A stretch of 63,993 nucleotides of DNA, the filler included, from Vicugna vicugna (lineage: Eukaryota): assembly GCA_013265495.1 (NCBI GenBank). It is 73 parts of 72 records of this genome, joined end to end, with 100 filler letters (N's around TTAATTAATTAA, not from the genome) between each part and the next. Parts side by side here need not be neighbours in the genome. Positions count along the whole stretch, not along the records: positions 47,457 to 48,134 come from PNXW01025967.1; 72 more parts are not named here. The stretch is one strand, 5' to 3'. The notes beneath the pieces were generated by a model. It was not told where the DNA came from and did no database searches. It was given only the letters and a program-made list of their open reading frames with translations. Positions 2,337 to 63,618 of this stretch are shown piece after piece. The translations under genes were made by a program, and so were the position numbers. Each line of letters begins with the position of its first letter. The first letter of the stretch is position 1.

Positions 2337-3217
2337 AGTCCACGCAGCTCTCTTCAGTCACAGGTGTTCCCTGTTCGCGGATTCCAAGAAATAACTTCCC
2401 TGACTTTGGTGAGGCAGCCTCTGATGCTGGGATATCCTGCAATTAACCCTAGAATTCCCTGGCACAGTGACATTAGGAAAACCCTCCGGGGACACGAGCT
2501 TAGGCATTCCCTTAGAACCTACGTACTGCCTACCGTTGTTAGAACCTCCCCACGCTCAGGATTCCGGAATCATTGTCAGTGCGTGGGGAACTCGAGAGAC
2601 AAATCCCCGCAGTTCTCTTCAGTCACAGGTGTTCCCTGTTCGCGGAATTCCGAGAAATAACTTCCCTGTCCTTGGGGAGCCAGCCTCTGACACTGGGATA
2701 TCCTGCAATCACCCCTAGCATTCCCTGGCACAGGACATTAGGAAAAACCTCAGGGGAGACGAGCTTAGGCATTCCGATAGAACCCACGCGCTGCCGACTG
2801 TTGGTGGAACCTCCGAACGCTCAGGATTCCGGAAATTCAGTGCGGGGGAGCTCGAGAGACATCTCCACGCAGCTCTCTTCAGTCACAGGTGTTCCCTGTT
2901 CGCCAAAGTCCGAGAAATACATTCCCTGACCTTTGGGAGGCAGCCTCTGACACTCGGATATCCTGCAATCAACCCTAGCATTCCCTGGCACAGAGACATT
3001 AGGAAAACCCTCAGGGGAGACGAGCTTAGGCATTCCGATAGAACCCACGCGCTGCCGACTGTTGGTGGAACCTCCGAACGCTCAGGATTCCGGAACCATT
3101 TTCAGTGCGTGGGGGAGCTCGAGAGACAATTCCACGCAGCTCTCCTCAGTCACAGGTGTTCCCTGTTCGCCAAAGTCCGAGAAATACATTCCCTGACCTT
3201 TGGGAGGCAGCCTCTGA
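2337..3217. repeat. Satellite family B (GC-rich, ~267-bp monomer), ~3.3 copies
   Basis: agtcacaggtgttccc starts at 2356, 2621, 2881 and 3148 (spacings 265, 260, 267). A CTCGAG (XhoI) site occurs once per monomer. Confidence 0.95.
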
Positions 3218-5248: not shown

Positions 5249-5680
5249 CTACCTGGGAATAACTGTACCCCCATAAAGATGCATGAACTCAGTATCCCCA
5301 CTTCAAACACACACGAAGACGTGTTCAGGTATCCTGAGTTTGGGCCGGCAATTTCAAGTGACAGCACCGCCTGGGTTCTAATAATATCCGATAGCTTGTA
5401 ATCCCTGAGTGTTTCCCTAGGCCTGGCTCTGANNNNNNNNNNNNNNNNNNNNNNNNNNNNNNNNNNNNNNNNNNNNNNNNNNNNNNNNNNNNNNNNNNNN
5501 NNNNNNNNNNNNNNNNNNNNNNNNNNNNNNNNNNNNNNNNNNGGAGTGGGGATACAGAAATCCCCCTCCCACAAGACTGGCTTCTGGAATCCTGAATTGG
5601 GAAAGATCCTCCAACTGACATCAGTGCCAGAGTAATAGAGAATCCTTAACATCTCTTCCCTGATGGATTGCGTAAGCTGG
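5249..5680. repeat. Satellite family D
   Basis: caggtatcctgag...gcctgggttctaataatatcc and cctccaactgacatcag, as in 1050-2236. Confidence 0.82.
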
Positions 5681-9527: not shown

Positions 9528-10709
9528 ATTTGAATAGATTCCATCTACATGATATTCCGTGTTCATTACATATTACATACGTAACTGATTTGACACACAT
9601 GCATTCCTGAGTTGAGGGCATCTGGATTACTAATCTTTCATCCTCTATAAAAGGACTATTTTCATCTAGACACGTGTACACATTTTCACAAGCTTTCACT
9701 AACACCAGGTTTGAATTCGTGCATTTTTCACTGAAAAATACTTCAGGAGCGATTTCAACCTAAGAGATATGTAATTTCCATGAATTCCATCAACATGGCA
9801 TTCCGGGTTCCGTACTTGCTACATGCATGATGGATTCGGGATACATGTGTTTCTGAGTTGTGAGCATATGGATTACTGAACTTTCATCCACGAAACAAGT
9901 CATATAAATCCACGAAACATATATACCCTTAGAAATATTTACTCTGACTTCATATGTTTTTTTCTATTACCAGGTTTTAATCAGAGGATTGGCACCAGAA
10001 AACACTCTTTGAGCGAATATTCACAAACTAAGATGAATTTAAATTTTTTACATAACCATGGCATTCCGTATTCTGAACATCTTTCTTGCATCACGGATTC
10101 CTCAAACATGCATTTCTGAGTTGTGAACATTCGCATGACTGATGTTACAACCACGAAAAAAGTACCTATGCACTTTGAAATATATACTATGACTTGGTTG
10201 TTTCTTCCTATCACCAGTGTCAAGAATCACACTTTGATCCCCGAAAAACCCTCTTGGAGCGAATTCTAACCTAGAGATATGTAATTTGAATAGACTCCAT
10301 CTACATGATATTCCGTGTTCATTACATGNNNNNNNNNNNNNNNNNNNNNNNNNNNNNNNNNNNNNNNNNNNNNNNNNNNNNNNNNNNNNNNNNNNNNNNN
10401 NNNNNNNNNNNNNNNNNNNNNNNNNNNNNNNNNNNNNNNNNNNNNNNNNNNNNNNNNNNNNNNNNNNNNNNNNNNNNNNNNNNNNNNNNNNNNNNNNNNN
10501 NNNNNNNNNNNNNNNNNNNCAGATATGTAATTTACATGAATTCCAACAACATGGCATTCCGGGTTCCGTACATGCTACATGCATGACAGATATGAAAACA
10601 TGAGTCTCTGAGTTGTGAGCATGTGGATTTATGAACTTTCATTCACCATACAAGGAATATATAAACTTAGAAAGATTTACTCAGACTTCATAGGTTTTTT
10701 CTATCACCA
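9528..10709. repeat. Satellite family A, more than one full trimer
   Basis: atttgaataga recurs at 9528 and 10284 (756 bp, including a local duplication near 9886-9919). Confidence 0.94.
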
Positions 10710-13947: not shown

Positions 13948-15430
13948 TTTATTCTCTAATCTATATTCTATAATTTGTGTTCATCATTCTAATTACTATA
14001 TCCTATATTCAGTACTACGTAGTCTATATTATATATTCTGTGTTCCACAATATATATTCTAAATTCTATATAAAGTATTCTGTATTCTATATTCTAATTT
14101 CTGTGTTCTGCGTTCCATGTTCTAAATTCTGGTTTCTATATTCTCTAATCTTTATTTTATATACTGTGTTCCAAATTGTATATTCTGTATTCAATATTCT
14201 GCATTCCGTATTCTACATTCCATATTCTGTGTTATACATTCTATATTCTAAATTCGAAATTCACTATTCTGTATTCTATATTCTAAATTCTGTGTTCTAC
14301 ATTCCATGTTCTTAATTCTGGGTTCTATATTCTCTATTCTATATTCTATATTTTGTGTTCATCATTCTATACTGTATATAATATATTCGGCATTCTGTAA
14401 TCTATATTCTATGTTCTGTGTTCTACATTCTATATTCTAAATTCTATATTCAGTTTTCTGTATTCTATATTCTAAATTCTGTGTTCTGCATTCCAAGTTC
14501 TAAATTCTCGGTTCTATATTCTCTAATCTATATTCTATATTCTGTGTTCTACATTGTANNNNNNNNNNNNNNNNNNNNNNNNNNNNNNNNNNNNNNNNNN
14601 NNNNNNNNNNNNNNNNNNNNNNNNNNNNNNNNNNNNNNNNNNNNNNNNNNNNNNNNNNNNNNNNNNNNNNNNNNNNNNNNNNNNNNNNNNNNNNNNNNNN
14701 NNNNNNNNNNNNNNNNNNNNNNNNNNNNNNNNNNNNNNNNNNNNNNNNNNNNNNNNNNNNNNNNNNNNNNNNNNNNNNNNNNNNNNNNNNNNNNNNNNNN
14801 NNNNNNNNNNNNNNNNNNNNNNNNNNNNNNNNNNNNNNNNNNNNNNNNNNNNNNNNNNNNNNNNNNNNNNNNNNNNNNNNNNNNNNNNNNNNNNNNNNNN
14901 NNNNNNNNNNNNNNNNNNNNNNNNNNNNNNNNNNNNNNNNNNNNNNNNNNNNNNNNNNNNNNNNNNNNNNNNNNNNNNNNNNNNNNNNNNNNNNNNNNNN
15001 NNNNNNNNNNNNNNNNNNNNNNNNNNNNNNNNNNNNNNNNNNNNNNNNNNNNNNNNNNNNNNNNNNNNNNNNNNNNNNNNNNNNNNNNNNNNNNNNNNNN
15101 NNNNNNNNNNNNNNNNNNNNNNNNNNNNNNNNNNNNNNNNNNNNNNNNNNNNNNNNNNNNNNNNNNNNNNNNNNNNNNNNNNNNNNNNNNNNNNNNNNNN
15201 NNNNNNNNNNNNNNNNNNNNNNNNNNNNNNNNNNNNNNNNNNNNNNNNNNNNNNNNNNNNNNNNNNNNNNNNNNNNNNNNNNNNNNNNNNNNNNNNNNNN
15301 NNNNNNNNNNNNNNNNNNNNNNTACATTCTATGTGTTCTATATTGTATATTCTATATTATATATAATGTATTCCGTATTCTATAATCTATACTCTGTGTT
15401 ATATATTCTATATCCTATATTCTATATTCA
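13948..15430. repeat. Satellite family C: degenerate (TATATTC)n with a 189-bp (27x7) superunit
   Basis: ttcca(t/a)g landmark at 14113, 14302 and 14491, exactly 189 apart. Confidence 0.95.
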
Positions 15431-16145: not shown

Positions 16146-16502
16146 TCAAATTACATATCTCTAGTGTAGATTTCGCTCCAAGAGGTTTTTTGTGGGACCA
16201 AAGTGTGATTCTTGAATCTGGTGATAGGAAAAGCTACGAAGTCTAAGTAAATATTTCAGGGTGCATAGGTAACTTGTTTCGTGTTTGAAACATCAGTCAT
16301 GCGCATGTTCACAACTGAGAAACTCATGTTTAAGGAAACCCTGTTGCATAAAACATGTTCGTAATTCGAAATGTCATGTTTATGTAAGCAATGTAAATTA
16401 CATGTATATTGGTTAGAATTCGCTCAAAGAGAGTTTTCCGCTGCCAAATGTCCGATTTTAGAACCTGGTGATAGGAAAAACCTATGAAGTCAGAGTAAAT
16501 AT
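16146..16502. repeat. Satellite family A
   Basis: A1 (ttcgctccaagagg...aagtgtgattcttga) followed by A2 (ttcgctcaaaga...aaatgtccgattttagaacc). Confidence 0.93.
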
Positions 16503-16602
16503 NNNNNNNNNNNNNNNNNNNNNNNNNNNNNNNNNNNNNNNNNNNNTTAATTAATTAANNNNNNNNNNNNNNNNNNNNNNNNNNNNNNNNNNNNNNNNNN
16601 NN

Positions 16603-16930
16603 TGCACATGTTCACAACTCAGAAATGCATGTTTGAGGAATCTGTTTTGCATGAAACATGTTCAGAATACGGACTGCCACGGTTATATAAAAAATGTAAT
16701 TTACAAGTGTATTGGTGAGAATTCGCTCAAAGAGGGTTTTCTGGTGCCAAATGTCCGATTTTAGTACCTGGTGAAAGAAAAAATCTATGAAGTCACAGTA
16801 AATATTTCTAAGTCTATATACGCCTGTTTCGGTGGATGAAAGTTCACTAATCCACATGCTCACAAGTCAGAAACGCATGACTGCTGAATCCTTCATACAT
16901 GTAGCATGTACGGAACCCGGGAATGCCATG
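16603..16930. repeat. Satellite family A
   Basis: catgttcacaactcagaaatgcatgtttgagg...gaattcgctcaaaag...catgtacggaaccc. Confidence 0.93.
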
Positions 16931-17030: not shown

Positions 17031-17483
17031 CTGAGAAACCCGAGTAAGTGTTTCTCCTGCAACACGTTCCCTTTGAGCTGGATGAATGAACGTCTCTCCA
17101 TATGCTCAATTCTGAGAGATAAGTGTGTGTGAAAGCCGTCCTTCACCTAGCTTGAAGGGAACACAAAGTTTCTTTTCAGTTGCAAACACCACTCCATACA
17201 TATATATGGGGAGGTACNNNNNNNNNNNNNNNNNNNNNNNNNNNNNNNNNNNNNNNNNNNNNNNNNNNNNNNNNNNNNNNNNNNNNNNNNNNNNNNNNNN
17301 NNNNNNNNNNNNNNNNNNNNNNNNNNNNNNNNNNNNNNNNNNNNNNNNNNNNNNNNNNNNNNNNNNNNNNNNNNNNNNNNNNNNNNNNNNNNNNNNNNNN
17401 NNNNNNNNNNNNGAGTTTATCTTCAGTTGCAAACCCCATCCATACATATATATGGTGAGGTAGAAGCTCCAACTCGGTTTTAC
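17031..17483. repeat. Satellite family E (~245-248 bp), opposite orientation to 20474-20929
   Basis: Reverse complement of the 20474 scaffold (gtgtgtgtgaaagccgtccttcacctagcttgaagggaacacaaag). Confidence 0.88.
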
Positions 17484-17583: not shown

Positions 17584-18655
17584 CCTTGGGGAGGCAGCGT
17601 ATGTCATTGGGATATCCTGAAAACCCCCGTACCATTCCCTGGCACAGAGATATTAGGAAAAATCTCAGGGGAGGCGAGTTTAGGCATTCCGTTAGAACCG
17701 ACGCGCTGCCGACCGTTGGTGGAACCTCCCCACGCTCAGGATTCCGGAACCATTGTCAGTGCGNNNNNNNNNNNNNNNNNNNNNNNNNNNNNNNNNNNNN
17801 NNNNNNNNNNNNNNNNNNNNNNNNNNNNNNNNNNNNNNNNNNNNNNNNNNNNNNNNNNNNNNNNNNNNNNNNNNNNNNNNNNNNNNNNNNNNNNNNNNNN
17901 NNNNNNNNNNNNNNNNNNNNNNNNNNNNNNNNNNNNNNNNNNNNNNNNNNNNNNNNNNNNNNNNNNNNNNNNGTGGGACCTAGCTCAGTATACCAGAACT
18001 ATTGTCAGTGCGAGGGGAGCTCGAGAGATAACTCCACGCAGCTCTCTTCATTCACAGGAGTTCCCTGTTCCGGGAAGTCCGGGAAATACCTTCCCTGGCC
18101 TTGGGGAAGAAGCGTATGTCACTGGGAAATCCTGCAAACACCCCTACCATTCCCTGGCATAGAGAATTTAGGAAAACCCTCAGGGGAGGAGAGCAAAGGC
18201 ATTCCGTTAGATCCCACGCGCTGCCGACCGTTGGTGGGACCTACCCACGCTCAGTATACCAGAACTATTGTCAGTGCGAGGGGAGCTCGAGAGATAACTC
18301 CACGCAGCTCTCTTCATTCACAGGAGTTCCCTGTTCCGGGAAGTCCGGGAAATACCTTCCCTGACCTTGGGGTGGCAGCCTCGGTCACTGGGATATCCTG
18401 CAATCACCCCTAGCATTCCCTGGCACAGAGATATTAGGAAAACCCTCAGGGGAGGAGAGCAAAGGCATTCCGTTAGATCCCACGCGCTGCCGACCGTTGG
18501 TGGGATCTCCCCACACTCAGGATTCCGGAACCATTGTCAGTGCGTGGGGGAGCTCGAGAGACATCTCCATGCAGCTCTCTTCAGTCAAGGTGTTCCCTGT
18601 TTGGGGAAGCCCGGGAAATAACTTCCCTGAACTTGGGGAGGCAGTGTATGTCACT
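17584..18655. repeat. Satellite family B
   Basis: CTCGAG at 18020, 18286 and 18553 (spacings 266, 267). Confidence 0.95.
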
Positions 18656-20473: not shown

Positions 20474-20929
20474 CATGTGGAGAGACGTTCGTTCATCCAG
20501 CACAAAAGGAACGGTTGGTAGGAGAAACAGTACTCCGTGTTCTCAGTCTGTTTCCTAGTGCCGGTTTGAAGTGCCTGCCGTTTTCACTGTAAAACCGAGT
20601 TGGGCCTTGTACATCCCCATATATATGTATGGAGTGGAGTTGGCAACTGAAAAGAAACTTTGTGTTCCCTTCAAGCTAGGTGAAGGACGGCTTTCACACA
20701 CACTTATCTCTCAGAACTGAGCATAGAGACGTTCGTTCATCCAGCACAAAGGGAAAGGGTTGCAACAGAAACACTTACTCTGTGTTCTCAGTCTGTTCCC
20801 TAGTGACGGTTTGAAGTGCCTGCCGTTTTCACTGTAAAACCGAGTTGGGGCTTGTACCACCCCATATATATGTATGGATTGGTATTTGAAACTGAAAAGA
20901 AGCTTTGTGTTCCCTTCAAGCTAGGTGAA
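20474..20929. repeat. Satellite family E, ~1.9 monomers
   Basis: gttcgttcatccagcac at 20487 and 20731; tcaagctaggtgaa at 20671 and 20916. Confidence 0.92.
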
Positions 20930-24918: not shown

Positions 24919-26621
24919 GAAGTATTTTTCTGTGAAAAAAGCAAGAGTTCGAAACTGGTGTTATTGAAAGTTTGTGAAAATGAGTACACGTGTCTAGATG
25001 AAAACATTCCATTTATAGAGAATGTAAGATCACTAATCCACATGGTCTCAACTCAGGAATGCATGTTTGTCGAAACCATCATGCCTGTAGCATGTACGGA
25101 AATATGAATATCATGTTGATGTAATCTATTCAAATTATATATCTCTTGGGTAGAATTCGCTCAAGAGGGTTTTTCTGGGGTCAAAGTGTCATTCTTGAAA
25201 CTGGTGATAGGAAGAAANNNNNNNNNNNNNNNNNNNNNNNNNNNNNNNNNNNNNNNNNNNNNNNNNNNNNNNNNNNNNNNNNNNNNNNNNNNNNNNNNNN
25301 NNNNNNNNNNNNNNNNNNNNNNNNNNNNNNNNNNNNNNNNNNNNNNNNNNNNNNNNNNNNNNNNNNNNNNNNNNNNNNNNNNNNNNNNNNNNNNNNNNNN
25401 NNNNNNNNNNNNNNNNNNNNNNNNNNNNNNNNNNNNNNNNNNNNNNNNNNNNNNNNNNNNNNNNNNNNNNNNNNNNNNNNNNNNNNNNNNNNNNNNNNNN
25501 AAGTCAAAGTAAATAATTCAAAGTGCATAGGTAACTTGTTTGGTGGTTGAAACATCAGTCATGCGCATGTTCACAACTCAGAAATGCATGTTTGAGGAAT
25601 CCATGATGCATGAATCATGTTCGGAATACGGAATGCCATGGATATGTAGACAATGTAAATTACATGTGTATTCTTGAGAATTCGCTCAAAGAGTTTTTCT
25701 GGTACCTAATGTCCTATTTTAGGACCTGGTTATAGGTAAAACGTATGAAGTCTGAGTAAATATTTCTAAGTGTATATATGCCTTGTTTGGTGGATGAAAC
25801 ATATGTAATCCACATGCTCACAAGTCAGGAACGCATGTTTTCCGGATCCGTCATGCCTGAAGCATGTACGGAACCCGGAATGCCATGTTGATGGAATTCA
25901 TGTAAATTACATATCTATTAGGTTGAAATGGCTTCAGAAGTATTTTTCTATGAAAAATGCATGAATCGAAACTGGTGTTAGGGAAAGCTTTTGAAAATGA
26001 GTACACGTGTCTAGATAAAAATTTTCCTTTTATACAGGATGGAAGATTAGTAATCCAGATGCTCTCAATTCAGGAATGCATGTTTGTCGTATCCGTCATA
26101 TATGTAGCATGTACGAAACNNNNNNNNNNNNNNNNNNNNNNNNNNNNNNNNNNNNNNNNNNNNNNNNNNNNNNNNNNNNNNNNNNNNNNNNNNNNNNNNN
26201 NNNNNNNNNNNNNNNNNNNNNNNNNNNNNNNNNNNNNNNNNNNNNNNNNNNNNNNNNNNNNNNNNNNNNNNNNNNNNNNNNNNNNNNNNNNNNNNNNNNN
26301 NNNNNNNNNNNNNNNNNNNNNNNNNNNNNNNNNNNNNNNNNNNNNNNNNNNNNNNNNNNNNNNNNNNNNNNNNNNNNNNNNNNNNNNNNNNNNNNNNNNN
26401 NNNNNNNNNNNNNNNNNNNNNNNNNNNNNNNNNNNNNNNNNNNNNNNNNNNNNNNNNNNNNNNNNNNNNNNNNNNNNNNNNNNNNNNNNNNNNNNNNNNN
26501 NNNNNNNNNNNNNNNNNNNNNNNNNNNNNNNNNNNNNNNNNNNNNNNNNNNNNNNNNNNNNNNNNATCCCGACTCAATCATGCATGTATCAAGTACGGAA
26601 CCCGGAATGCCATGTTGATGG
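24919..26621. repeat. Satellite family A (two internal gaps)
   Basis: Subunit order A3, A1, then A2, A3. Confidence 0.94.
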
Positions 26622-26721: not shown

Positions 26722-27618
26722 CTAGGAAAACACTTAGGGAAGTCAAGCTAAGGCATTCTATTAAAAGCCAGGTGCTGCTTTCTGTTGGAAGAACCTCCCC
26801 ACACTCAGAACCCCAGAACACTTCTTCCTGTGTGTGCTGGAGGTGGGGAAACATAGCACACGCATTTTTCAGGGGGAACTGTGATTCCACGGTTGTGGTT
26901 TGTAGGTCAAACACCCACATCCCATGGATAGGCTCTCGCTAATACTTGGTTTAGAGCCAAATCCCATTCCATCATGGAAGACAAGTCAAGGTATTGTATT
27001 AGAACCCAGGCGCTGCTGTTAGTGAGAAGAACCTCCCCACACTCAAGACATCTGAACCCAATGCCGTGTGTGTGCTGGAAGAGGGTAACAGAGTCCGCGT
27101 ATATTTCTGGGGGCACTGGTGTTCCCAGGTTGGGGATGTAGTTAAACACTTCCACTGCTCATAGAGAGGCACTCGCTATTACTTTGTTTCATTGTCCACC
27201 ACACCTTCGCTCACAGCCCGGCTTATGGAAACACTCAGGGAAGTCAAGCCAAGTGATTCTATTAGATCCCAGGTGCTGCCGTCAGATTGAGGAGCCTCCC
27301 CACACTTAAGATAGCCGAAGAGTTCTTCGTGTGTGTGCTGGAAGAGGGTAACAGAGTCCGCGTATATTTCTGGGGGCACTGGTGTTCCCAGGTTGGGGAT
27401 GTTGGTAAACACTTCCACTGCTCATAGAGAAGCACTAGCTATTACTTTGGTTTTGTGCCCAACCCCACCTTAACTCACATCCTGGCCAAAGGAAACAATC
27501 AGGGATGTCAATCCAAGAGATTCTATTAGATCCCAGGTGCTGCCGTCAGATTGAGGAGCCTCCCCACACTTAAGATAGCCGAAGAGTTCTTCGTGTGTGT
27601 GCTGGATTTGGGGAAACA
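26722..27618. repeat. Satellite family D, ~3.4 monomers
   Basis: gagggtaacagagtccg at 27081 and 27344 (263); attagatcccaggtgc at 27261 and 27525 (264). Confidence 0.92.
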
Positions 27619-28921: not shown

Positions 28922-29561
28922 GAGAATTCGCTCAAAGAGTGTTTTCTGGTGTCAAATGTCCGATTTCAGAACCTGGTGATAGAAAAAATCTATGAAGTCA
29001 GATTAAATTTTTCTAAGAGTATATATTCCTTTTATGGTGGATGAAAGTTCAATAATCCACATGCTCACAACTCAGAGACTCATGTTTTCGTATCTGTCAT
29101 GCATGTAGCATGTACGGGACCCGGAATGCCATGTTGATGGAATTCATGTAAATTACATATCTGTTAGGTGGAAATCGCTCCAGAAGTATTTTTCTGTGAA
29201 AAATGCACGAATTCCAAACTGGTGCTAGGGAAAGCTTGTGAAAATGTGTACACGGGTCTAGATGAAAATATTCCTTTTATAGAGGGTGAAAGATTATTAA
29301 TCCAGATGCCCTCAACTCAGGAATGCATGTTTGTCGAATCCGTCATTTATGTAGCATGTAAGGAACACGGAATATCATCTAGATGGAATCTATTCAAATT
29401 ACATAAGGGTAGGATTCGCTCCAAGAGGGTTTTTCTGGGGTCAAAGTGTGATTCTTGAAACTGGTGATAGGAATGAGCTATGAAGTCACAGTAAATATTT
29501 CAGAGTGCTTAGGTATCTTGTTTGGTGGTTGAAAAATCAGTCATACGCATGTTCACAACTG
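28922..29561. repeat. Satellite family A
   Basis: tcgctc landmarks at about 28927 (A2), 29174 (A3) and 29415 (A1). Confidence 0.95.
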
Positions 29562-32320: not shown

Positions 32321-33444
32321 AGTACGGAATGCCATGGTTATGTAAACAATGCAAATTAAATGTGTTTTGGTGAGATTTCCCTCAAAGAGTGTTTTCTGTT
32401 GCCAAAAGTCCGATTTTAGATCTTGGTGATAGAAAAAACTATGAAGTCCGAGTAAATATTTCTAAGCCTATATACGCCTTGTTTGGTGGATGAAAGGTCA
32501 GTAATCCACATGCTCACAATCCAGAAACGNNNNNNNNNNNNNNNNNNNNNNNNNNNNNNNNNNNNNNNNNNNNNNNNNNNNNNNNNNNNNNNNNNNNNNN
32601 NNNNNNNNNNNNNNNNNNNNNNNNNNNNNNNNNNNNNNNNNNNNNNNNNNNNNNNNNNNNNNNNNNNNNNNNNNNNNNNNNNNNNNNNNNNNNNNNNNNN
32701 NNNNNNNNNNNNNNNNNNNNNNNNNNNNNNNNNNNNNNNNNNNNNNNNNNNNNNNNNNNNNNNNNNNNNNNNNNNNNNNNNNNNNNNNNNNNNNNNNNNN
32801 NNNNNNNNNNNNNNNNNNNNNNNNNNNNNNNNNNNNNNNNNNNNNNAATTACATATCTCTAAGGAATAATTCGCTCCAAGAGGGTTTTTGTGGGATCAAA
32901 GTGTGATTCTTGTAACTGGTGATAGGAAGAAGCTACAAAGTCAAAGTAAATATTTCAGAGAGAATAAGTAACTTGTTTGGTAGTTGTAACTTCAGTCCTG
33001 CGCATGTTCACAACTCAGAAATTCATGTTTGAGGTATCCATGATGCATGGACATGTTTGTAATACGGAATGCCATGTTTATGTAAACAATGTAAATTACA
33101 TGTGCATTGGTGAGAATTCGCTCAAAGTGTGTTTTCTGGAGGAAATTTGTCCGATTTTAGAACCTGGTAATAGGAAAACCTATGAAGTCAGAGTAAATAT
33201 GTCTAAGTAAATATTCGCCTTGTCGGAGGATGAAAGGTCAGTAATCCACATGCTCACAAGTCAGTAACGCATGATTGTCAAATCCGTCATACATGTAGCA
33301 TGTACCGAACCCGGAATGCCATGTTGTTGGAATTCATGTAAATTAAATATCTGTTAGTTTGAATTCGCTCCAGAACTATAACTCCAGAACTATTTTTCGG
33401 TGAAAAATGCACGAATTCGGACCTGGTGTTAGGGAAAGCTTGTG
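32321..33444. repeat. Satellite family A
   Basis: Subunits A2, gap, then A1, A2, A3. Confidence 0.94.
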
Positions 33445-36681: not shown

Positions 36682-37503
36682 CTATATTCGAAATTCCCTG
36701 TTCTGCATTCCGTTTCTAAATTCTGGATTCTATATTATCCATTCTATACTCTATATTTGTGTTCTTCATTCTATATTCTACATACTATATTCTGCCTTCC
36801 GTATTCTATATTCTTTATTCTGTGTTTTACATCCTATATTCTAAATTTTATATTCAGTATTCTGTCTTCTATATTCTAGATTCTGTGTTCTGCATTCCAT
36901 GTTCTATTCCATGTTCTAAATTCTGAGTTATGTATTCTGTTTCCCATATTCTATATTTTGTGTTCTATATTCTATATTCTGTATTCTCTATTCTACATTT
37001 CGTATCCTATATTCTATATTCTGTGTTCTACATTCTATAATATAAAATCTATATTCAGTATTCTGTATTCTATATTCGAAATTCCCTGTTCTGCATTCCG
37101 TTTCTAAATTCTCCATTCTATATTCTATATTCTGTGTTCTAAATTCTATCTTCTGTATTCTACATTCTGCATTCCGTATTCAATATTCTATATTCTGTGT
37201 TCTACATTGTATATTCTAAATTCTATATTCAGTATTCTGTATTCTATATTCTAATTTCTCTGTTCTCCATTCCATGCTCTAAATTGTGGGTTCTATATTC
37301 TGTATTCTATATTCTATTTTCTTTGTTCTACATTCTATATTCTAAATTCTATATTCAGTGTTATACATACTATATCCTAAATTCTGTGTTCTACTTTCTA
37401 TATTCTTTTTTCTATATTCTACATTCCGTATTCTATATTCTATATTCTGAGTTCTGATTTCTATATTCGAAGTTCGATACTCAGTATTCTGTATTCTATA
37501 TTC
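36682..37503. repeat. Satellite family C
   Basis: Heptamer phasing; ctatattcgaaattccctgttctgcattccgtttctaaattct recurs at 36682 and 37070 (about two superunits). Confidence 0.95.
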
Positions 37504-39248: not shown

Positions 39249-40024
39249 CTTCAATGATGGCTTGCCAAGGGTGGTGTGCGGGAGAAATTGGGGTTTGGGC
39301 TGTAAATCCAGATATTAGCGAGTGCTTCTCCATGGGAAGAGGAAATTATTAACCAAAATCCCACAACCTGGGAATATCTTTGCTCCTTGAAAAATGCGTG
39401 GACTCTGTTTCCCCACCTCCAGCACACACATGAATATTTGATCTGGTATCCTGAGTGTGGGGAGGCACCTCCCACTGACAGCAGCATCTGGGATCAAATA
39501 GGATCACTTAGGTTATCTTCCCTGAGTGTATTCCAAGGACGGGATGGGAGCGAAGGTGGGGGTTAGGCTCTAAAGCCAAGTAAATAGCGAGGGCTATGGG
39601 CAGTGGAGGTGTTTAAAGTACATTCCCTCCCTGGGAACACCTGTGCCCCCATAAAGTTGGGTGGACTATGTATCTCCAACAAAAGCACACACAAAGACTT
39701 GTTCAGGTATCTTGAGTGTCGGGAGTCTCCTCCAACTGACAGCAGCGAATGGGTTCTATTAGAATCCCTTAGCTTGCCTTCCCTGATGGCATGCCTAGGC
39801 TGGAGAGTGGGTGAAAGTGGGGGTTGGGTTTGATGTCCAAGTAGCAACGAGTGCCAATTTACTGAGGAAGTACTTAGAGGATTTCACGCTAATGTGGAAC
39901 ACCTGTGCCCCCATTCATCTGTGTGGACTGGGTATCCACACCTCCCCCACACACAAGGTTGGGATCCGGAATCCTGAGGGTTTGGAAGATCCTCCAACTG
40001 ACAGCAGCGCCTGCGTTCTAATAG
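39249..40024. repeat. Satellite family D, three diverged monomers
   Basis: ctgacagcagc at 39475, 39736 and 39998 (spacings 261, 262). Confidence 0.9.
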
Positions 40025-40124: not shown

Positions 40125-40909
40125 ACAGAATTTAGAATATAGAGTATAGAATACTGAATAGAGAATTTACAATATAGAATGTAGACCACAGAATATAGAA
40201 TACAGAATACAGAATATAGAAACCAAAATTTAGAACATGGAATGCAGAATGGAGAATTTAGAATATAGAATACCGAATACAAATATAGAATATGAATATA
40301 CAATATAGAACACAGAATTTAGAATATAGAATACAGAATACTGAATATAGAATTTNNNNNNNNNNNNNNNNNNNNNNNNNNNNNNNNNNNNNNNNNNNNN
40401 NNNNNNNNNNNNNNNNNNNNNNNNNNNNNNNNNNNNNNNNNNNNNNNNNNNNNNNNNNNNNNNNNNNNNNNNNNNNNNNNNNNNNNNNNNNNNNNNNNNN
40501 NNNNNNNNNNNNNNNNNNNNNNNNNNNNNNNNNNNNNNNNNNNNNNNNNNNNNNNNNNNNNNNNNNNNNNNNNNNNNNNNNNNNNNNNNNNNNNNNNNNN
40601 NNNNNNNNNNNNNNNNNNNNNNNNNNNNNNNNNNNNNNNNNNNNNNNNNNNNNNNNNNNNNNNNNNNNNNNNNNNNNNNNNNNNNNNNNNNNNNNNNNNN
40701 NNNNNNNNNNNNNNNNNNNNNNNNNNNNNNNNNNNNNNNNNNNNNNNNNNNNNNNNNNNNNNNNNNNNNNNNNNNNNNNNNNNNNNNNNNNNNNNNNNNN
40801 NNNNNNNNNNNNNNNNNNNNNNNNNNNNNNNNNNNNNNNNNNNNNNNNNNNNNNNNNNCAAAAAGGAATGCAGAATATAGAATACAGAATATAGAATATT
40901 GAACACAGA
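40125..40909. repeat. Satellite family C, (GAATATA)n orientation; gap 40356-40858
   Basis: agaatatagaatacagaatac; catggaatgcag. Confidence 0.93.
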
Positions 40910-47456: not shown

Positions 47457-47861
47457 GGAACTTCCCCACGCTCAGGATTCCGAAACCATTGTCAGTGAGT
47501 GCGGGATCTCGAGAGAAATATCCACGCAGCTCTCTTCAGTCACAGGTGTTCCTTGTTAGCGGAAGTCCGATAAATACCTTCCCTGACCTTGGGGAGGCAG
47601 CATCGGTCACTGGGATATCCTGCAATCACCCCTAGCATTCCCTGGCACAGAGATATTAGGAAATCCCTCAGGGGAGACGAGCTTAGGCATTCCGTTAGAA
47701 CCCACGTGCTGCCGTCCGTTGGTGGAACTTCCCCACGCTCAGGATTCCGGAACCATTGTCAGTGCGTGGGGGATCTCGAGAGACAACTCCACGCAGCTCT
47801 CTTCAGTCACAGGTGTTCCTTGTTAGCGGAAGTCCGATAAATACCTTCCCTGACCTTGGGG
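47457..47861. repeat. Satellite family B, 1.5 near-identical monomers ending at a telomeric junction
   Basis: agtcacaggtgttccttgttagcggaagtccgataa at 47538 and 47805 (267). Confidence 0.95.
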
Positions 47862-48134
47862 TTAGGGTCTAGGGTCAGGGTCAGGGTCAGGGTTAGGGTT
47901 AGGGTCAGGGTTAGGGTCAGGGTCAGGGTCAGGGTCAGGGTCAGGGTTAGGGTCAGGGTCAGGGTCAGGGTGAGGGTCAGAAGTCACAGGTGTTCCTTGT
48001 TAGCGGAAGTCCGATAAATACCTTCCCTGACCTTGGGGTTAGGGTCTAGGGTCAGGGTCAGGGTCAGGTTTAGGGTTAGGGTTAGGGTCAGGGTCAGGGT
48101 CAGGGTTAGGGTTTAGGGTTACGGTTAGGGTTAG
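47862..48134 (+). repeat. Telomeric/variant repeat array (TCAGGG, TTAGGG, TGAGGG) interrupted by a 57-bp satellite-B piece (47982-48038)
   Basis: Direct reading; the G-rich strand runs away from the satellite to the scaffold end. Confidence 0.96.
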
Positions 48135-49876: not shown

Positions 49877-50035
49877 GGGGGAGGATATAGCTCAAGTGGA
49901 AGATCATGTTCTTAGCATGCACAAGGGCCTGGGTTCAATCCCCACTATTTCTTCTAAAAATAAAATAAATAAATAAAAACCTAATTACCACCCCACAGCA
50001 AACAATTAATTTATTACTTTAATTAAAAGTTAGAA
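49877..50035 (+). mobile_element. Full-length camelid Vic-1-type tRNA-derived SINE with target-site duplication
   Basis: GGGGGAGG start, A-box TAGCTCAAGTGG at 49888-49899, B-box GGTTCAATCC at 49932-49941, A-rich tail, and TSD aaagataatt(t)aa at 49864-49876 and 50036-50047. Confidence 0.88.
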
Positions 50036-51109: not shown

Positions 51110-51987
51110 TCCTCAGAGCTGGCGCCCTGGCTGCATCCAGGCCTCCGCAGGGTCTTGGGCAGGGGGGCCGAGTTGCTGTCACTGTGTGCGGACACGGCAT
51201 GGGCTGGGAGCTGAGCAGTCAGCAGCCCAGAGAGGCCCTTGGGGAGCTCTGTGGAACGAGGAAGCTTGGGGAAGGGGACCCCAGGAAGTGACCTCACTTC
51301 CCTGGCAACCGAACCCAACACAACTTAGAACCCAGGTCACCGGGCACCCACTCTGTCGAGAAGCCCCTACTCAGCTCACCCGGTTGGGCAACTCAGTTCA
51401 ACTCAGTCACACATGTTCTGCTGCGTCCCATCACCCCGAGGAAAACCCGAGGCCGCGGTCCCAGGAAGGCCCGCAGCGAGGGCCTGGGCCAGCGGTGCCG
51501 GCAATGGCTCGGCTCTCACCCCAGGCGCCCCTGGACTTTTGGACACAGGGACCCAAAGGTAACCCAGGGAGGCCCGGGGCAGGCCCGCCCAGGCCGGGCC
51601 ACCACTCAGACCCCACCCGGGTATAGCCCCACATCCCCTTCCCTTTGCTGGTGGAGGTGGGCAGTCATGTTGGGCTGGGGTGGGGGGGCCTGCCTCAAGC
51701 ACGAGCAGGTCAGAGGCCTGGGGGGCCTGTCACGTCCGCACCCCGGGTCCCAGCTGGCGGGCTGGGCTGTGGCCAGCCGGGCAGGGCCCTGCCGCCAGAG
51801 TCGAAGCCCGTGCCCTCTGGCAGTGTCTCTTCCCTCCCGGGTGGCCGGCTCAGCTGACCGAGACCCCAGTCTAAGGTCGAGCGGGCAGAAGCGGGAGCGG
51901 TCCTGGCCGGGCTGGGCTCTGAGACCTCTGGGCTGGGCCGGTTGCCGCTCACTGTCATTGCAGAGCCGGACACTGCAGGAGCCGCTG
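51110..51987. other. GC-rich, CpG-containing unique sequence (possible CpG-island edge or GC-rich intron)
   Basis: High G+C and many CpGs; the overlapping ORFs on both strands show no recognisable protein. Confidence 0.5.
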
Positions 51988-52671: not shown

Positions 52672-53511
52672 CAAATTAAATATCTCTTGGGTAGAATTCG
52701 CTCCAAGAGTGTTTTTGAGGGATCACAGTGTGATTCTTGAATCTGGTGATAGGAAGAATCTGCGATGTCAAAATAAATATTTCAAAGTGCATAGGTAACT
52801 TGTTTGGTGGTTGAAACATCAGTCATGCGCATGTTCACAACTCAGAAATGCATGTTTGAGGAATCTGTGATGCATGAAACATGTTCGTAATACGGAATGC
52901 CATCTTTATGTAAACAATGCAAATTACATGTGTATTAGTGAGATTTCGCTCAAAGTGCGTTTTCTGGTGCCAAATGTCCGATTTTAGAACCTGGTGATAG
53001 AAAAATCTTTGAAGTCAGAGTAAATATTTCTTAGTGGATATACGCCTTGTTTGGTGGATGAAAGGTCAGTAATCCACATGCTCACAAGTCAAAAGCGCAT
53101 GATTGTCGAATCCGTCATGCATGTAACATGTACGGAACCCGGAATGCCCAGTTGATGGAATTCATGTAAATTACATACCTATTACGTGAAAATCGCTCCA
53201 GAACACATTTTCTGTGAAAAATGTACGATTTCGAACCTGGTGTTAGGGAAAGCTTGTTAAAATGTGTACACGTGTCTAGATGATTGTTAAAATCACGTGT
53301 CTAGATGAAAATATTCCTGTTATAGAGGATGAAAGATTAGTAATACATATGCCCTCAACTCAGTAATTCAAGTTTGTCAAATCCGTCATGTATGTAGCAT
53401 GTAATGAACACGGAATATTATGTAGATGGAAACAATTCAAATTACATATCTCTAAGGAAGAATTCACTCCATGAATTTTTTTGTGGGATCAAAGTGTGAT
53501 TCTTGAAACTG
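52672..53511. repeat. Satellite family A, complete A1-A2-A3-A1 cycle
   Basis: tc(g/a)ctc landmarks at about 52697, 52945, 53192 and 53463 (248, 247, and 271 including a 25-bp duplication). Confidence 0.96.
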
Positions 53512-54571: not shown

Positions 54572-55720
54572 CTATATTCTGTATTCAATATTCTGCATTC
54601 CGTAGTCTATATTCTACATTCTGTGTCCTATATTGTACATTCTAAATTCTATATTCAGTATTTTGTTTTCTATATTCTATATTCTGTGTTCTGCATTCCA
54701 TGGTCTCAATTCGGGTTTTTTATTCTGTTTTCCATATTCTATTTTCTGTGTTCTACATTCTATATTCGGCATTCCGTATTCTATATTCTGTGTTCTAAAT
54801 TGTATATTCTTTATTCTATATTCAGTATTCTGTATTCTATATTCTAAATTCTGTGCTCTATATTGTATATTCATATTCTATATTCAGAATTCGGTATTCT
54901 ATATTCTTAATTCTCTGTTCTGCATTCCATGTTCTNNNNNNNNNNNNNNNNNNNNNNNNNNNNNNNNNNNNNNNNNNNNNNNNNNNNNNNNNNNNNNNNN
55001 NNNNNNNNNNNNNNNNNNNNNNNNNNNNNNNNNNNNNNNNNNNNNNNNNNNNNNNNNNNNNNNNNNNNNNNNNNNNNNNNNNNNNNNNNNNNNNNNNNNN
55101 NNNNNNNNNNNNNNNNNNNNNNNNNNNNNNNNNNNNNNNNNNNNNNNNNNNNNNNNNNNNNNNNNNNNNNNNNNNNNNNATAAATTCTGTACATTCTATA
55201 TTTGAAATTCTATATTCAGTATAATCTTTTCTGTATTCTAAATACAGTTTTCTGCATTCCATGTTCTCAATTCTGAGTTTTGTATTATGTTTTCCATATT
55301 CTATATTCTGTGTTGTACATTATATATTCTGTATTCTATATTCTGCATTCCGTATTCTATATTCTATATTCTGTGTTCTACATTGTATATTCTAAATTCT
55401 ATATTCAGTATACTGTATTCTGTATTCTAAATTCTGTGCTCTGCCTTCCATGTTCTCAATACTGTGTTTTTTATTATGTTTTCAATATTCTATATTCTGT
55501 GTTCCTCATTCTAATTTCTATATTGTATATTTTGCATTCCTTAGTCTATATACTATATTCTGTGTTCTACATTGTATATTCAAATTCTATATTCAGTATT
55601 CTGTTCTCTATATTCTAAATTCTGTGTTCTGATCTCAATTCTGGGTTTTGTATCCTGTTTTCCATATCTATATGATGTGTTCTACATTCTAAATTCTAAA
55701 TTCTATATTCAGTATTCTGT
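54572..55720. repeat. Satellite family C
   Basis: ttccatg at 55257 and 55446 (189). Confidence 0.95.
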
Positions 55721-55820: not shown

Positions 55821-56586
55821 GTTTCATGCATCACGGATTCCTCAACTTGAATTTCTGAGTTGTGATCATGCGCATGACAGATTTTTCAAACATGAAACAA
55901 GTTACCTATGCACTATGAAATATTTATTTTGACTTCGTAGCTGCTGCCTATCACCAGTATCAAGAATCACTCTTTGATCCCAGTAAAACCCTCTTGGAGC
56001 GAATTCTACCCTAGAGATATTTAATTTGAATAAATGCCATTTACATGATATTCCGTGTTCCGTACATGCTACATACATGACGGATTTGACAAACATGCAT
56101 TCCTGTGTTGAGAGCATGTGGATTACTAATCTTTCCTCCTCTATAAAAGNNNNNNNNNNNNNNNNNNNNNNNNNNNNNNNNNNNNNNNNNNNNNNNNNNN
56201 NNNNNNNNNNNNNNNNNNNNNNNNNNNNNNNNNNNNNNNNNNNNNNNNNNNNNNNNNNNNNNNNNNNNNNNNNNNNNNNNNNNNNNNNNNNNNNNNNNNN
56301 NNNNNNNNNNNNNNNNNNNNNNNNNNNNNNNNNNNNNNNNNNNNNNNNNNNNNNNNNNNNNNNNNNNNNNNNNNNNNNNNNNNNNNNNNNNNNNNNNNNN
56401 NNNNNNNNNNNNNNNNTTATTTACTCTGACTTCATAGATTTTTCTATCACCAGGTTCTAAAATCGGACATCTGGCACCAGAAACACTCTTTGAGCGAATT
56501 CTCACCAATACTCATGTAATTTACATTGTTTACATAAAAAAGGCATTCCTTATTACGAGCATGTTTCATGCATCACGGATTCTTCA
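55821..56586. repeat. Satellite family A, reverse orientation
   Basis: ctcttggagcgaattctacc; ctctttgagcgaattctcacc. Confidence 0.94.
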
Positions 56587-57212: not shown

Positions 57213-58207
57213 AACACAGTATATAGAATATAGAATACTGTATGCAGAATATGGGATCTCGAAAATAGAATTAATAACACAGAATATAGAATATATAATA
57301 GAGAATATACAACTCAGAATTTAGAATTTGGAAAGCCGAACACAGAATTTAGAATATAAAATATAGAATACTAAATATAGAATTTAGAGAAGAGAATGCG
57401 GAACACAGAATATAGAATATATAATACAGAATACTGAATATAGAATTTAGAACATAGAATGCGGAACATAGAATTTACAATATAAAATACAGAATACTGA
57501 ATATAGAATTTAGAACATGGAATGCANNNNNNNNNNNNNNNNNNNNNNNNNNNNNNNNNNNNNNNNNNNNNNNNNNNNNNNNNNNNNNNNNNNNNNNNNN
57601 NNNNNNNNNNNNNNNNNNNNNNNNNNNNNNNNNNNNNNNNNNNNNNNNNNNNNNNNNNNNNNNNNNNGAATAGAGAAAATACTAAATAGAGAATTTAGAA
57701 TATAGAATGTAGAACACAGAGTACAGAATACAGAATACGAAGTACTGAATATAGAATTTAGAATAAAGAATGTAGAACACAGAATATAAAATGTAGAATA
57801 CGGAATGCAAAATATAGAATACAGAATATAGAATGTAGACCACAGAATGTAGAATATGGAAAACAGAATACAGAACCGAGGATTAAAAACATGGAATGCA
57901 GAACACAGGGTTTAGAATAAAGAATACAGAATACTGAATATAGAATTTAGAATATAGAATGTAGAACTCAGAATATACAATATAGAATACGGAATGCAGA
58001 ATATAGAATATAGAATATAGAATTATGAACACAAAATATATAATATAGAATAGAGTATATAGAACCCAGCATTTAGAACATGGAATGAAGAACACAGACT
58101 TTAGAATATAGAATACAGAATACTGAATATATAATTTAGAATATAGAATGTAGAACCCATATTATACAATATAAATACGGAATGCAGAATATAGAATGTA
58201 GTTTAAA
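57213..58207. repeat. Satellite family C, (GAATATA)n orientation
   Basis: atggaatg at 57891 and 58080 (189). Confidence 0.95.
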
Positions 58208-58307: not shown

Positions 58308-58790
58308 CCCTGTCCGGGGAAGTCCGAGAAATAAATTCCCTGACCATGGGGAAGTAGCCTCTGACTCTGGGATTTCCTACAAAACCCCCTAGAATTCCCT
58401 GGCACAGAGACATTAGGAAAACACTCAGGGTATACCAGCTCAGGCATTCCGTTGGAACCCACGCGCTGCCGACCGTTGGTGGAACCTCCCCACGCTCAGA
58501 GTTCCGGAACCATTGTAAGTGCGTGGGGGAGCACGAGAGACAGCTCCACGCAGATATCTTCAGTCACAGGTGTTCCCTGCCTGGGAAGTCCGAGAATTAA
58601 CTTCCCTGAACTTGGGGAGGCAGCCTCTTTCACTGGGATTTCTTGCAGACCCCCGTTGCAATCCCTGGCACAGACACATTAGGAAAACCCTCAGGGGAGA
58701 CCAGCTCAGGCATTCCGTTGGAACCCACGCGCTGCCGACCGTTGGTGGAACCTCCCCACGCTCAGGGTTCCGGAACCATTGTCAGTGCGT
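58308..58790. repeat. Satellite family B
   Basis: ggcattccgttggaacccacgcgctgccgaccgttggtggaacc occurs twice about 269 apart. Confidence 0.95.
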
Positions 58791-60592: not shown

Positions 60593-61354
60593 AATTTACA
60601 ATGTTTACATAACCATGGCATTCCGTATTCTGATCATATTTCATGCACAAGAATTCCTCCAATATGAATTTCTGAGTTGTGAACATGCGCATGACTGATT
60701 TTTCAACCACCAAACAAGTTACCTATGCACTTTGAAATATTTACTGTGACTTCGTATCTTCTTCCTCTCACCAGTTTCAAGAATCACATTTGAATGACCC
60801 AGGAAAAACCCTCTTGGAATGAATTCTACCCTAGATATATAATTTGAATAGATTCCATCAACATGATATTCCCTGTTATGTACATGCTACATTCATAATG
60901 GATTCGACAAACATGCATTCCTGAGTTGTGAGCATGTAGATTACTGATCTTTCATTCTCTATAAAAAGAATATTTTCAGCTGGACTTTTGTCCACATTTT
61001 CACAAGCTTTCCCTAACACATGTTACGAATTCATGCATTTTTCACAGAAAAATAATTCTGGAGTGATTTCCACGTAACAGATATGTAATTTATATGAACT
61101 CCATCAACATGGCATTCCGGGTTCCGTACATGCTACATGTATGACTGTTTCGGCAAACATGCTTTTCTGTGTTGTGAGCATGTGGATTACAGATCTTTCA
61201 TCCACCAAACAAGGCTTATATACACTTAGAAATATTTACTTTGACTTCATAGGTTTTTTCTATCACCAGGTTCAAAACCCGGGCATTAGGCGCCAGAAAA
61301 CACTGTTTCAGCGAATTCTCACGAATACACATGTAATTTACATTGTTTACATAA
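60593..61354. repeat. Satellite family A, one complete ungapped trimer
   Basis: aatttaca.tgtttacataa at 60593 and 61335, a 742-bp period. Confidence 0.96.
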
Positions 61355-61454: not shown

Positions 61455-62159
61455 GCTATATTCTGTGTTCTATATTCTGCACCCCGTATTCTCTATTCTG
61501 TATTCTGTGTTCTTCATTGTATATTCTAAATTTTATATTAAGAATACTGTATTCTGTATTCTAAATTCTGTGTTCTACATTCCATGTTCTAAATTCTGGG
61601 ATCTACATTCTCTATTCTATATTCTATATTTTGTGTTCATCATTCTATATTCTATATTCTATATACTATATACTGCATTCCGTATTCTATATTCTATATT
61701 CTGTGTTCTACATTCTATATTCTAAATTCCATATTCAGTATTTTTTAANNNNNNNNNNNNNNNNNNNNNNNNNNNNNNNNNNNNNNNNNNNNNNNNNNNN
61801 NNNNNNNNNNNNNNNNNNNNNNNNNNNNNNNNNNNNNNNNNNNNNNNNNNNNNNNNNNNNNNNNNNNNNNNNTTTTGTATTGTGTTTTCCATATTCTATA
61901 TTCTGTGTTCTACATTCTCTGTTCTGTATTCTATATTCTGCATTCCGTATTCTATATTCTATATTCTGTGTTATTCATTGTATATTCTAAGTACTATATA
62001 CAGTTTTCTGCATTCAATATTCTAAATACTGTGTTCTGTATTCAATGTTCTAAATTGTATATTCTTTATTCTGGATTTTATATTCTAAATACTGTGTTCT
62101 TCATTCCAGTTCTTAATTCTGAGTTCTCTTTTCTGTTTTCCTCATTCTATATTCTGTGT
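61455..62159. repeat. Satellite family C
   Basis: Heptamer phasing; tgcattccgtattctatattc. Confidence 0.94.
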
Positions 62160-62909: not shown

Positions 62910-63618
62910 CTGACAATGGTTCCAGAATCCTGAGCATGGCGAGGATCCACCAACTGTCGGTAGCCCGTGGGTTCTAACGGAAAGCATAAGCTCGACTCCC
63001 CTGAGGGTTTTCCAAATGTCTCTGTGCCAGGGAATGCTAGGGGTGTTTGCAGGATATCCCAGTGACAGAGGCTGCCTCCCCAAGGTCAGTGAAGGTATTT
63101 CTCGGACTTCCCCGAACAGGGAACACCTGTGACTGAAGAGAGCTGCGTGGAGTTGTCTCTCGAGCTCCACCACGCACTGACAATGGTTCCGGAATCTTGA
63201 GCTTGGGAAGGTTCGACCAACGGTCGACAGCACGTGAGTTCTAACTGAAAGCCTAAGCTCGTCTCCCCTGAGGGTTTTCCTAATGTCTCTGTGCCAGGGA
63301 ATGCTAGGGGTGTTTGCAGGATATCCCAGTGACAGAGGCTGCCTCCCCAAGGTCAGTGAAGGTATTTCAAGGGAACACCTGTGAATGAAGAGAGCTGCGT
63401 GGAGTTGTCTCTCGAGCTCCCCCACGCACTGACAAAGTTTCCAGAATCCTGAGCGTGGGGAGGTTCCACCAACGGTCGGCAGCCCGTGGGTTCTAACGGA
63501 AAGCCTAAGCTCGACTCCCCTGAGGGTTTTCCTAATATCTGTGTGCCAGGGAATGCTAGGGGGTTTTGCAGTGTATCTCAGTGACAGAGGCTGCCTCCCC
63601 AAGTTCAGGGAAGCTATT
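62910..63618. repeat. Satellite family B, reverse orientation
   Basis: Repeated tgtgccagggaatgctagggg and gacagaggctgcctccccaag motifs. Confidence 0.95.

Follow-up and report, generated by a model that had tools for sequence, protein, structure and literature searches.

Two questions are raised by a small scaffold of the vicuña assembly GCA_013265495.1: does a satellite array that runs directly into telomere-type repeats mark a real chromosome end, and is the second copy of this junction, found 177 bp further on, a genomic duplication or a product of the assembly? The window, that is the whole stretch of 63,993 nucleotides that was analysed, consists of 73 small scaffolds (238–1703 bp, median 766) joined by spacers of the form N44-TTAATTAATTAA-N44, and the feature under study occupies one stand-alone, gap-free and unplaced scaffold of 678 bp (47457–48134). 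As the window is made of separate scaffolds joined together, its neighbours there are unlinked to it. A preceding sequence-only reading had proposed a satellite capped directly by telomere and a junction that is being amplified into a composite subtelomeric repeat. Searches against Rfam gave no match in the whole window, and a coding or RNA-gene reading of the feature was rejected; a head-to-head fusion scar was also rejected, with no C-rich arm present on the shown strand.

Results

The positions of all elements are outlined in Table 1. The satellite family to which the left part of the scaffold belongs connects 11 of the 73 scaffolds and makes up 5178 of about 47,200 window bases (11%). In sequencing run X22, 142,989 of 12,836,656 reads (1.1%) were placed on the satellite at a likeness of at least 92%, many of them partially, and the peak depth of 86,067 corresponds to about 0.9–1.2 × 10^5 satellite copies if a genome of 2.0–2.6 Gb is assumed, subject to any Hi-C bias. 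Within the truncated monomer the final 74 bp match 47521–47594 exactly. Furthermore, the satellite copies of the scaffold exhibit a rare haplotype (47820T/47825A/47827C/47838T), which was complete in none of the 13 other monomers of the window; at each of the four sites 91–97% of the placed X22 reads carry another letter, leaving 3–9% with the non-consensus one.

Table 1. Positions of the junction elements and of further repeats along the window, strand relative to the sequence as presented.
Feature	Position	Strand	Remark
Full 267-bp monomer of an abundant camelid satellite ('satellite B')	47457–47723	+	other window monomers 84–89% identical
Last monomer, truncated at CCCTGACCTTGGGG after its first 138 bp	47724–47861	+	132/138 identical to preceding monomer (95.7%)
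CAAGGTCA, overlapping CCCTGACC (reverse complement of the TCAGGG variant; both within 47848–47858)	47851–47858	-	one per monomer
Seed TTGGGG, phased with the telomeric repeats	47856–47861	+	3-nt exact microhomology GGG; 5/6 match to TTAGGG
Tract 1	47862–47980	+	19 units (5 TTAGGG, 1 TCTAGGG, 12 TCAGGG, 1 TGAGGG) + TCAG
Single A at the telomere-to-satellite back-join	47981	+	in neither telomeric phase nor satellite
Satellite end (final 57 bp), second copy	47982–48038	+	57/57 identical, rare four-letter haplotype included
Exact copy of 47805–47891 (87 bp)	47982–48068	+	whole demonstrable duplication
Tract 2	48039–48134	+	15 units + TTAG, to contig end; odd units TCAGGT, TTTAGGG, TTACGG
AT-rich satellite scaffolds	13948–15430, 36682–37503, 40125–40909, 54572–55720, 57213–58207, 61455–62159		
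Third repeat family	1–949, 9528–10709, 16146–16930, 24919–26621, 28922–29561, 32321–33444, 52672–53511, 55821–56586, 60593–61354		

The name and the position of this satellite may be informed by SAC-SAT, whose unit is said to measure 267 bp. SAC-SAT, a satellite of South American camelids, is NOR-associated (Genomics 2026;118:111212, as cited in the accessible part of PMC13751797). Judged by eye, the monomer appears homologous to the published camelid consensus VpaSat16: about 72 of 91 positions matched in a by-eye alignment with the first 400 printed letters of the alpaca consensus, and three common short motifs recur at monomer spacing. For six short motifs no match was obtained in the supplement of PMC13751797, of which the first 400 characters per cell were available. 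The published sequence (VpaSat16-1836, QB059680, same supplement) has a length of 1863 bp, about 7 × 266, and may possibly represent a higher-order unit of ~264/267-bp monomers. In the accessible part of PMC13751797 no telomere junction was seen for any alpaca satellite, and for VpaSat16 it mentions neither such a junction nor primers or FISH. A diverged relative of about 264 bp, 68–89% identical in short local matches, is present at 26722–27618 and 39249–40024 (also at 1050–2236 and 5249–5680).

The break of the 267-bp satellite at 47861 was found where the sequence-only reading had placed it, and all of its coordinates hold: directly after CCCTGACCTTGGGG the sequence continues with TTAGGG TCTAGGG TCAGGG. 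All 15 window matches of TTAGGGTTAGGG (at most one mismatch) fall within 47856–48130, compared to a mean of 0.26 in shuffled sequences, and 0 of 100 shuffles reached 15. Read 5' to 3', the G-rich strand leads away from the satellite, which is the orientation expected of a chromosome end. On this strand three exact bases occur in 19 and a 5/6 match in phase in 12 of 1212 cut/phase combinations (1.0–1.6%). Chance would thus place such a phased seed at the cut in only about 1–2% of cases, so that the forward join is probably real, and weighing everything we judge this to be very likely. A library or assembly chimera of two abundant repeats would account for the whole satellite-telomere join if both high-copy partners had met by accident, for which the fragmentary assembly and a read placement covering the satellite only leave room. 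Against this stand the rarity of an in-phase seed among random joins and the length of the microhomology, 3 nt being too short for an assembler overlap, and we regard such a chimera as very improbable.

Fresh addition by telomerase yields pure TTAGGG. In tract 1, only 5 of the 19 units have this canonical form and already the second unit is TCTAGGG, indicating that the telomere addition is old or that a telomere was captured. Recent healing by telomerase fails on this tract; old healing and telomere capture are both possible. The seed itself, with GGG exact and TTGGGG matching at five of six positions in phase, lies within the 1–5 nt of microhomology that was reported for 14 of 19 breakpoints of healed human terminal deletions (PMC3136441, as far as accessible), and telomerase is able to extend a broken end with repeats (10.1101/2022.10.31.514589, accessible part). 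The human ends resemble the present one in the short in-phase seed and differ from it in that their telomeric repeats are de novo, whereas here they are variant from the second unit on. The proposal of a satellite capped directly by telomere is plausible in the light of the orientation, the in-phase seed and a TCAGGG-rich start resembling proximal telomere variants; these parts are supported, while we infer the terminal position itself.

The scaffold might instead stem from the inside of a satellite array, where a double-strand break would have been patched with variant telomeric repeats and a piece of the flank duplicated, perhaps steered by nuclear receptors. The motif CAAGGTCA, which we take to be a putative nuclear-receptor-type half-site, lies 3 bp before the cut, the tract next to it is TCAGGG-rich, and tract 1 (about 20 units) formally has satellite on both sides; short interstitial telomeric sequences are known to form where breaks are repaired, and often have satellite beside them (PMC6410037, accessible part). 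However, satellite does not reappear before the contig ends within tract 2, each monomer has the half-site, whose proximity to the cut was noted post hoc, and the targeted insertion of telomeric repeats has, in the part of PMC6410037 that is accessible, been described for human ALT cells. An interstitial origin is therefore considered improbable. A fold-back of the CCCTGACC region to the tract was also obtained (z = -3.17) and was set aside as evidence because any tract of the common variant TCAGGG would pair with CCCTGACC.

Behind the forward junction, the recurrence after 177 bp described in the sequence-only reading was confirmed: 47805–47861 equals 47982–48038 at 57 of 57 positions, and the sequence is telomeric again from 48039. 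The two telomeric tracts differ, again in agreement with that reading. Tract 2 continues for 96 bp and is still telomeric when the contig ends. Canonical-type units make up 5 of 18 in tract 1 and 9 of 15 in tract 2, a difference that is not significant (Fisher P = 0.085) and is based on our own classes of units, in which TCTAGGG is not counted. Among the other 72 scaffolds, of which 10 contain related satellite, no other telomere-like tract was found. Tandem Repeats Finder describes the feature as 177 bp × 1.8 at 94%. Past the 87-bp block, the tracts share the hexamer phase only: without gaps, 5 of the 11 units agree (P = 0.43), and the longest common subsequence is 7 (P = 0.71). Consequently, true homology extends over 87 bp only, and the 177-bp unit of this call is overstated. 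Fast turnover of telomeric tracts could have erased any homology beyond the block.

At the back-join (47981/47982) no flanking homology was detected, the left extension of the repeat being zero. The same 57 bp are identical also in the preceding full monomer (47538–47594). As all three copies carry the rare haplotype, the duplicate must derive from the local monomer, either by a biological process or by an assembler reusing local sequence. A period of 177 bp breaks the 267-bp register, and together with the overlap-free back-join this means that a simple overlap-driven stutter would not produce the duplicate. Most assemblers would take an overlap-free join from a read. Such a read would be either genomic or a library chimera, and the extra A fits either, given that A-tailing during library preparation could leave an additional A at a join. 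Taken together, the chance that the back-join is real appears somewhat better than even.

As a control for the assembly, exact repeats were measured in all 73 scaffolds. Repeats of at least 50 bp were present in six of them, every one of this satellite family. The ten within-scaffold blocks of at least 60 bp measure 115, 88, 87, 87, 87, 75, 74, 72, 72 and 66 bp. Outside the scaffold under study, blocks of 87–88 bp occur in 2337–3217 (87), 62910–63618 (87) and 26722–27618 (88), and a second cluster of 72–75 bp extends over four scaffolds including this one. The two clusters, formed by blocks shared between adjacent monomers, involve 2337–3217, 17584–18655, 26722–27618, 47457–48134, 58308–58790 and 62910–63618. 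In a post hoc test under smooth length models, the accumulation of 4 of 10 blocks at 87–88 bp gave P = 0.011–0.040; after removal of the two blocks of the scaffold under study, 3 of 8 remained (P = 0.09–0.17). Long exact runs exceed the shuffle expectation in four of the six other 267-bp scaffolds and in the 264-bp relative. Of the three other 87–88-bp blocks, two end at an indel of 6 or 15 bp; among 319 difference events, only 27 are indels. Elsewhere, long exact blocks stay in the satellite register, with periods of 261–267. The recurrence of 87–88-bp blocks in three other satellite scaffolds suggests a signature of the assembler, which is the likely origin of both clusters; patchy gene conversion is possible.

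These block lengths bear directly on the idea that the forward junction is real and single, and that its second copy arose in short-read assembly or from a chimeric molecule of the library. In that case, a stretch of 87 bp would have been reused and joined to leftover telomeric reads, in line with the blocks of 87, 87 and 88 bp elsewhere, the 72–75-bp cluster, the excess of long exact runs, the two blocks that end at indels, and the unrelated tracts beyond the block. The odd units near the contig end would resemble errors at read ends, and the extra A is also what such a join could leave. On the other hand, the clustering is weak once the blocks of the scaffold under study are removed, patchy identity between adjacent monomers can be the result of real gene conversion, and a join that is overlap-free and breaks the register, unlike the other blocks, was probably contained in some read. 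We consider this origin a substantial possibility, less likely than not. As far as the second copy alone is concerned, an assembly artefact is about as likely as a real duplication.

The sequencing reads were also examined. Part of the contig is contained in 21 of 22 sequencing runs, the best share being 0.51; since words from the satellite alone can explain these shares, they do not count as support for the junction. Reads from four of the 22 runs (X1, X5, X12 and X22) were placed, with depth reported over the satellite part only, and for X12 no read was placed, possibly a false zero. The junction motif had 0 matches in metagenome contigs. As a control motif from the satellite was equally absent from metagenome, viral and GTDB contigs, this zero is uninformative. 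In the literature, covered without the SAC-SAT paper and the bulk of subscription journals, no account of a satellite-telomere junction in camelids was found, and the accessible part of a cattle T2T preprint (10.64898/2026.10.10.758172) holds nothing specific to such a junction.

Discussion

On balance, we tentatively favour, at a little less than an even chance, a genuine boundary at which an array of the camelid 267-bp satellite meets the telomere and which was duplicated once by slippage or template switching. Most likely, this boundary marks where a short arm rich in satellite ends. Initially, the array would have been broken inside a monomer and the end capped at TTGGGG, either through telomerase or with another telomere serving as template. 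The proximal tract may then have aged into a TCAGGG-rich variant zone. Least certain is the following step, presumably a single local event of replication slippage or template switching, in which a strand that had reached about 120 bp of the tract would have returned into the last monomer, 57 bp from its end, with a 1-nt insertion and a tandem duplication of 177 bp as the result. The adjacent monomer is indicated as template by the local rare haplotype of the duplicated 57 bp. Afterwards, the distal tract would have turned over by slippage of units and re-extension. The outcome would be a passive scar, for which no function is claimed. Several observations weigh against this course of events: the placed reads lie on the satellite part and none across either junction, exact sharing stops at 87 bp, which is the length of blocks in three other scaffolds, and a recent tandem duplication predicts some tract homology past the block, where both comparisons gave none beyond chance. 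Moreover, the scaffold is short and unplaced, and the variant-rich start requires age or capture of a telomere. The likelihoods given here in words, for the readings as for the two joins, are judgements and were not computed.

The direct contact of a satellite with telomeric repeats has parallels, which are cited here from the accessible parts of the respective papers. In the horse, satellites of acrocentric short arms lie directly against (TTAGGG)n (PMC13477059). As in the vicuña scaffold, a major satellite adjoins telomeric repeats without spacer; the satellite is a different one, the terminal position is demonstrated in the horse and deduced here, and no duplicate of the junction is described in the accessible text. 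At mouse telocentric ends (PMC10880262) the order is TLC satellite, TATACTCA repeat, truncated L1 and telomere, thus a satellite likewise near the telomere on a very short arm, but with L1 and a simple repeat in between instead of a direct join. Sultan arrays of Chlamydomonas (PMC8287924) contain in every monomer a seed in phase with the telomere, as does TTGGGG here; Sultan elements are specific to subtelomeres, whereas the camelid satellite makes up about 1% of reads.

Parallels for the duplication come from human telomeres. Internal duplications of variant repeats were found in 50 of 2,408 human telomere arrays (PMC13174434), with blocks of 56–1132 bp and a mean midpoint 1340 bp from the boundary (PMC13174434; 10.64898/2026.08.19.745664), and TCAGGG/TGAGGG are enriched at human acrocentric p-arm ends (10.64898/2026.08.19.745664), according to the accessible parts of these sources. 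These are likewise short tandem duplications in a variant-rich proximal telomere and of overlapping size range. They lie inside the telomere array and are supported by long reads, whereas the camelid one includes 57 bp of satellite and is known from the contig alone.

The amplification of the junction into a composite repeat, as put forward in the sequence-only reading, is not supported: only two copies are seen, their homology is confined to 87 bp and blocks of 87–88 bp recur in three other scaffolds. The idea can be kept in the form of a real tandem array of 177-bp satellite-plus-telomere units which the assembler collapsed and unrolled once. A cycle that is entered and left a single time would presumably look like the feature, and a mammalian precedent exists in the donkey, where 2PI-telo comprises monomers of about 1.2 kb with about 220 bp of telomere-like repeats, constitutes over half of 2PI and is found at terminal loci (PMC13477059, accessible part); its authors also cite similar satellites in whales and carnivores. 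Both systems combine telomere-like repeats and satellite in one unit, the donkey one as a heterochromatic interstitial telomeric sequence. Yet 2PI-telo forms a large array visible by FISH, while here two copies at 177-bp spacing have 87 bp in common. The differing tracts of these two copies and the 72 other scaffolds without any telomere-like tract also speak against a collapsed array, and the haplotype is rare in the reads (3–9% per site in X22), which caps the size of such an array while allowing a modest one. We regard this explanation as unlikely. Going one step further, the contig might capture the birth of a composite satellite, with a healed telomere and a 177-bp unit that is now amplifying at camelid short-arm ends; it would then represent an early stage of which donkey 2PI-telo is the end product. 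This joint reading is a rather unlikely one, and so, within it, is the route by which a TCAGGG-rich strand would pair with CCCTGACC of the satellite and repeatedly invade the last monomer.

The arrangement of satellite directly against telomere is in itself already known from horse and donkey ends. If the favoured reading of a boundary duplicated once is correct, the scaffold would anchor an as yet unassembled chromosome end of a camelid at base-pair level; such regions are, according to the 2026 alpaca satellite survey, still unresolved (PMC13751797, accessible part). Furthermore, it would document a variant-repeat duplication that extends beyond the telomere into the satellite, plausibly an initial step towards composites of the 2PI-telo type. 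If the second copy is an artefact, the recurring blocks of 87–88 and 72–75 bp imply that short tandem duplicates in the small satellite scaffolds of this assembly are untrustworthy without reads. The likely assembly signature may also affect other features on the small scaffolds of this assembly.

Other repeats of the window are noted for completeness. An AT-rich satellite with nested periods of 7, 63 and 189 bp (TATTCTA-type) occupies six scaffolds, and a third repeat family with an apparent period of about 740–756 bp was found in ten. A tandem repeat of about 245 bp is common to the scaffolds 20474–20929 and 17031–17483. The scaffold at 51110–51987 (878 bp) has a G+C content of 68%, far above the rest, and no Rfam match. 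A SINE-like element with an A-rich tail is located at 49877–49975 and is presumably a camelid tRNA-derived SINE.
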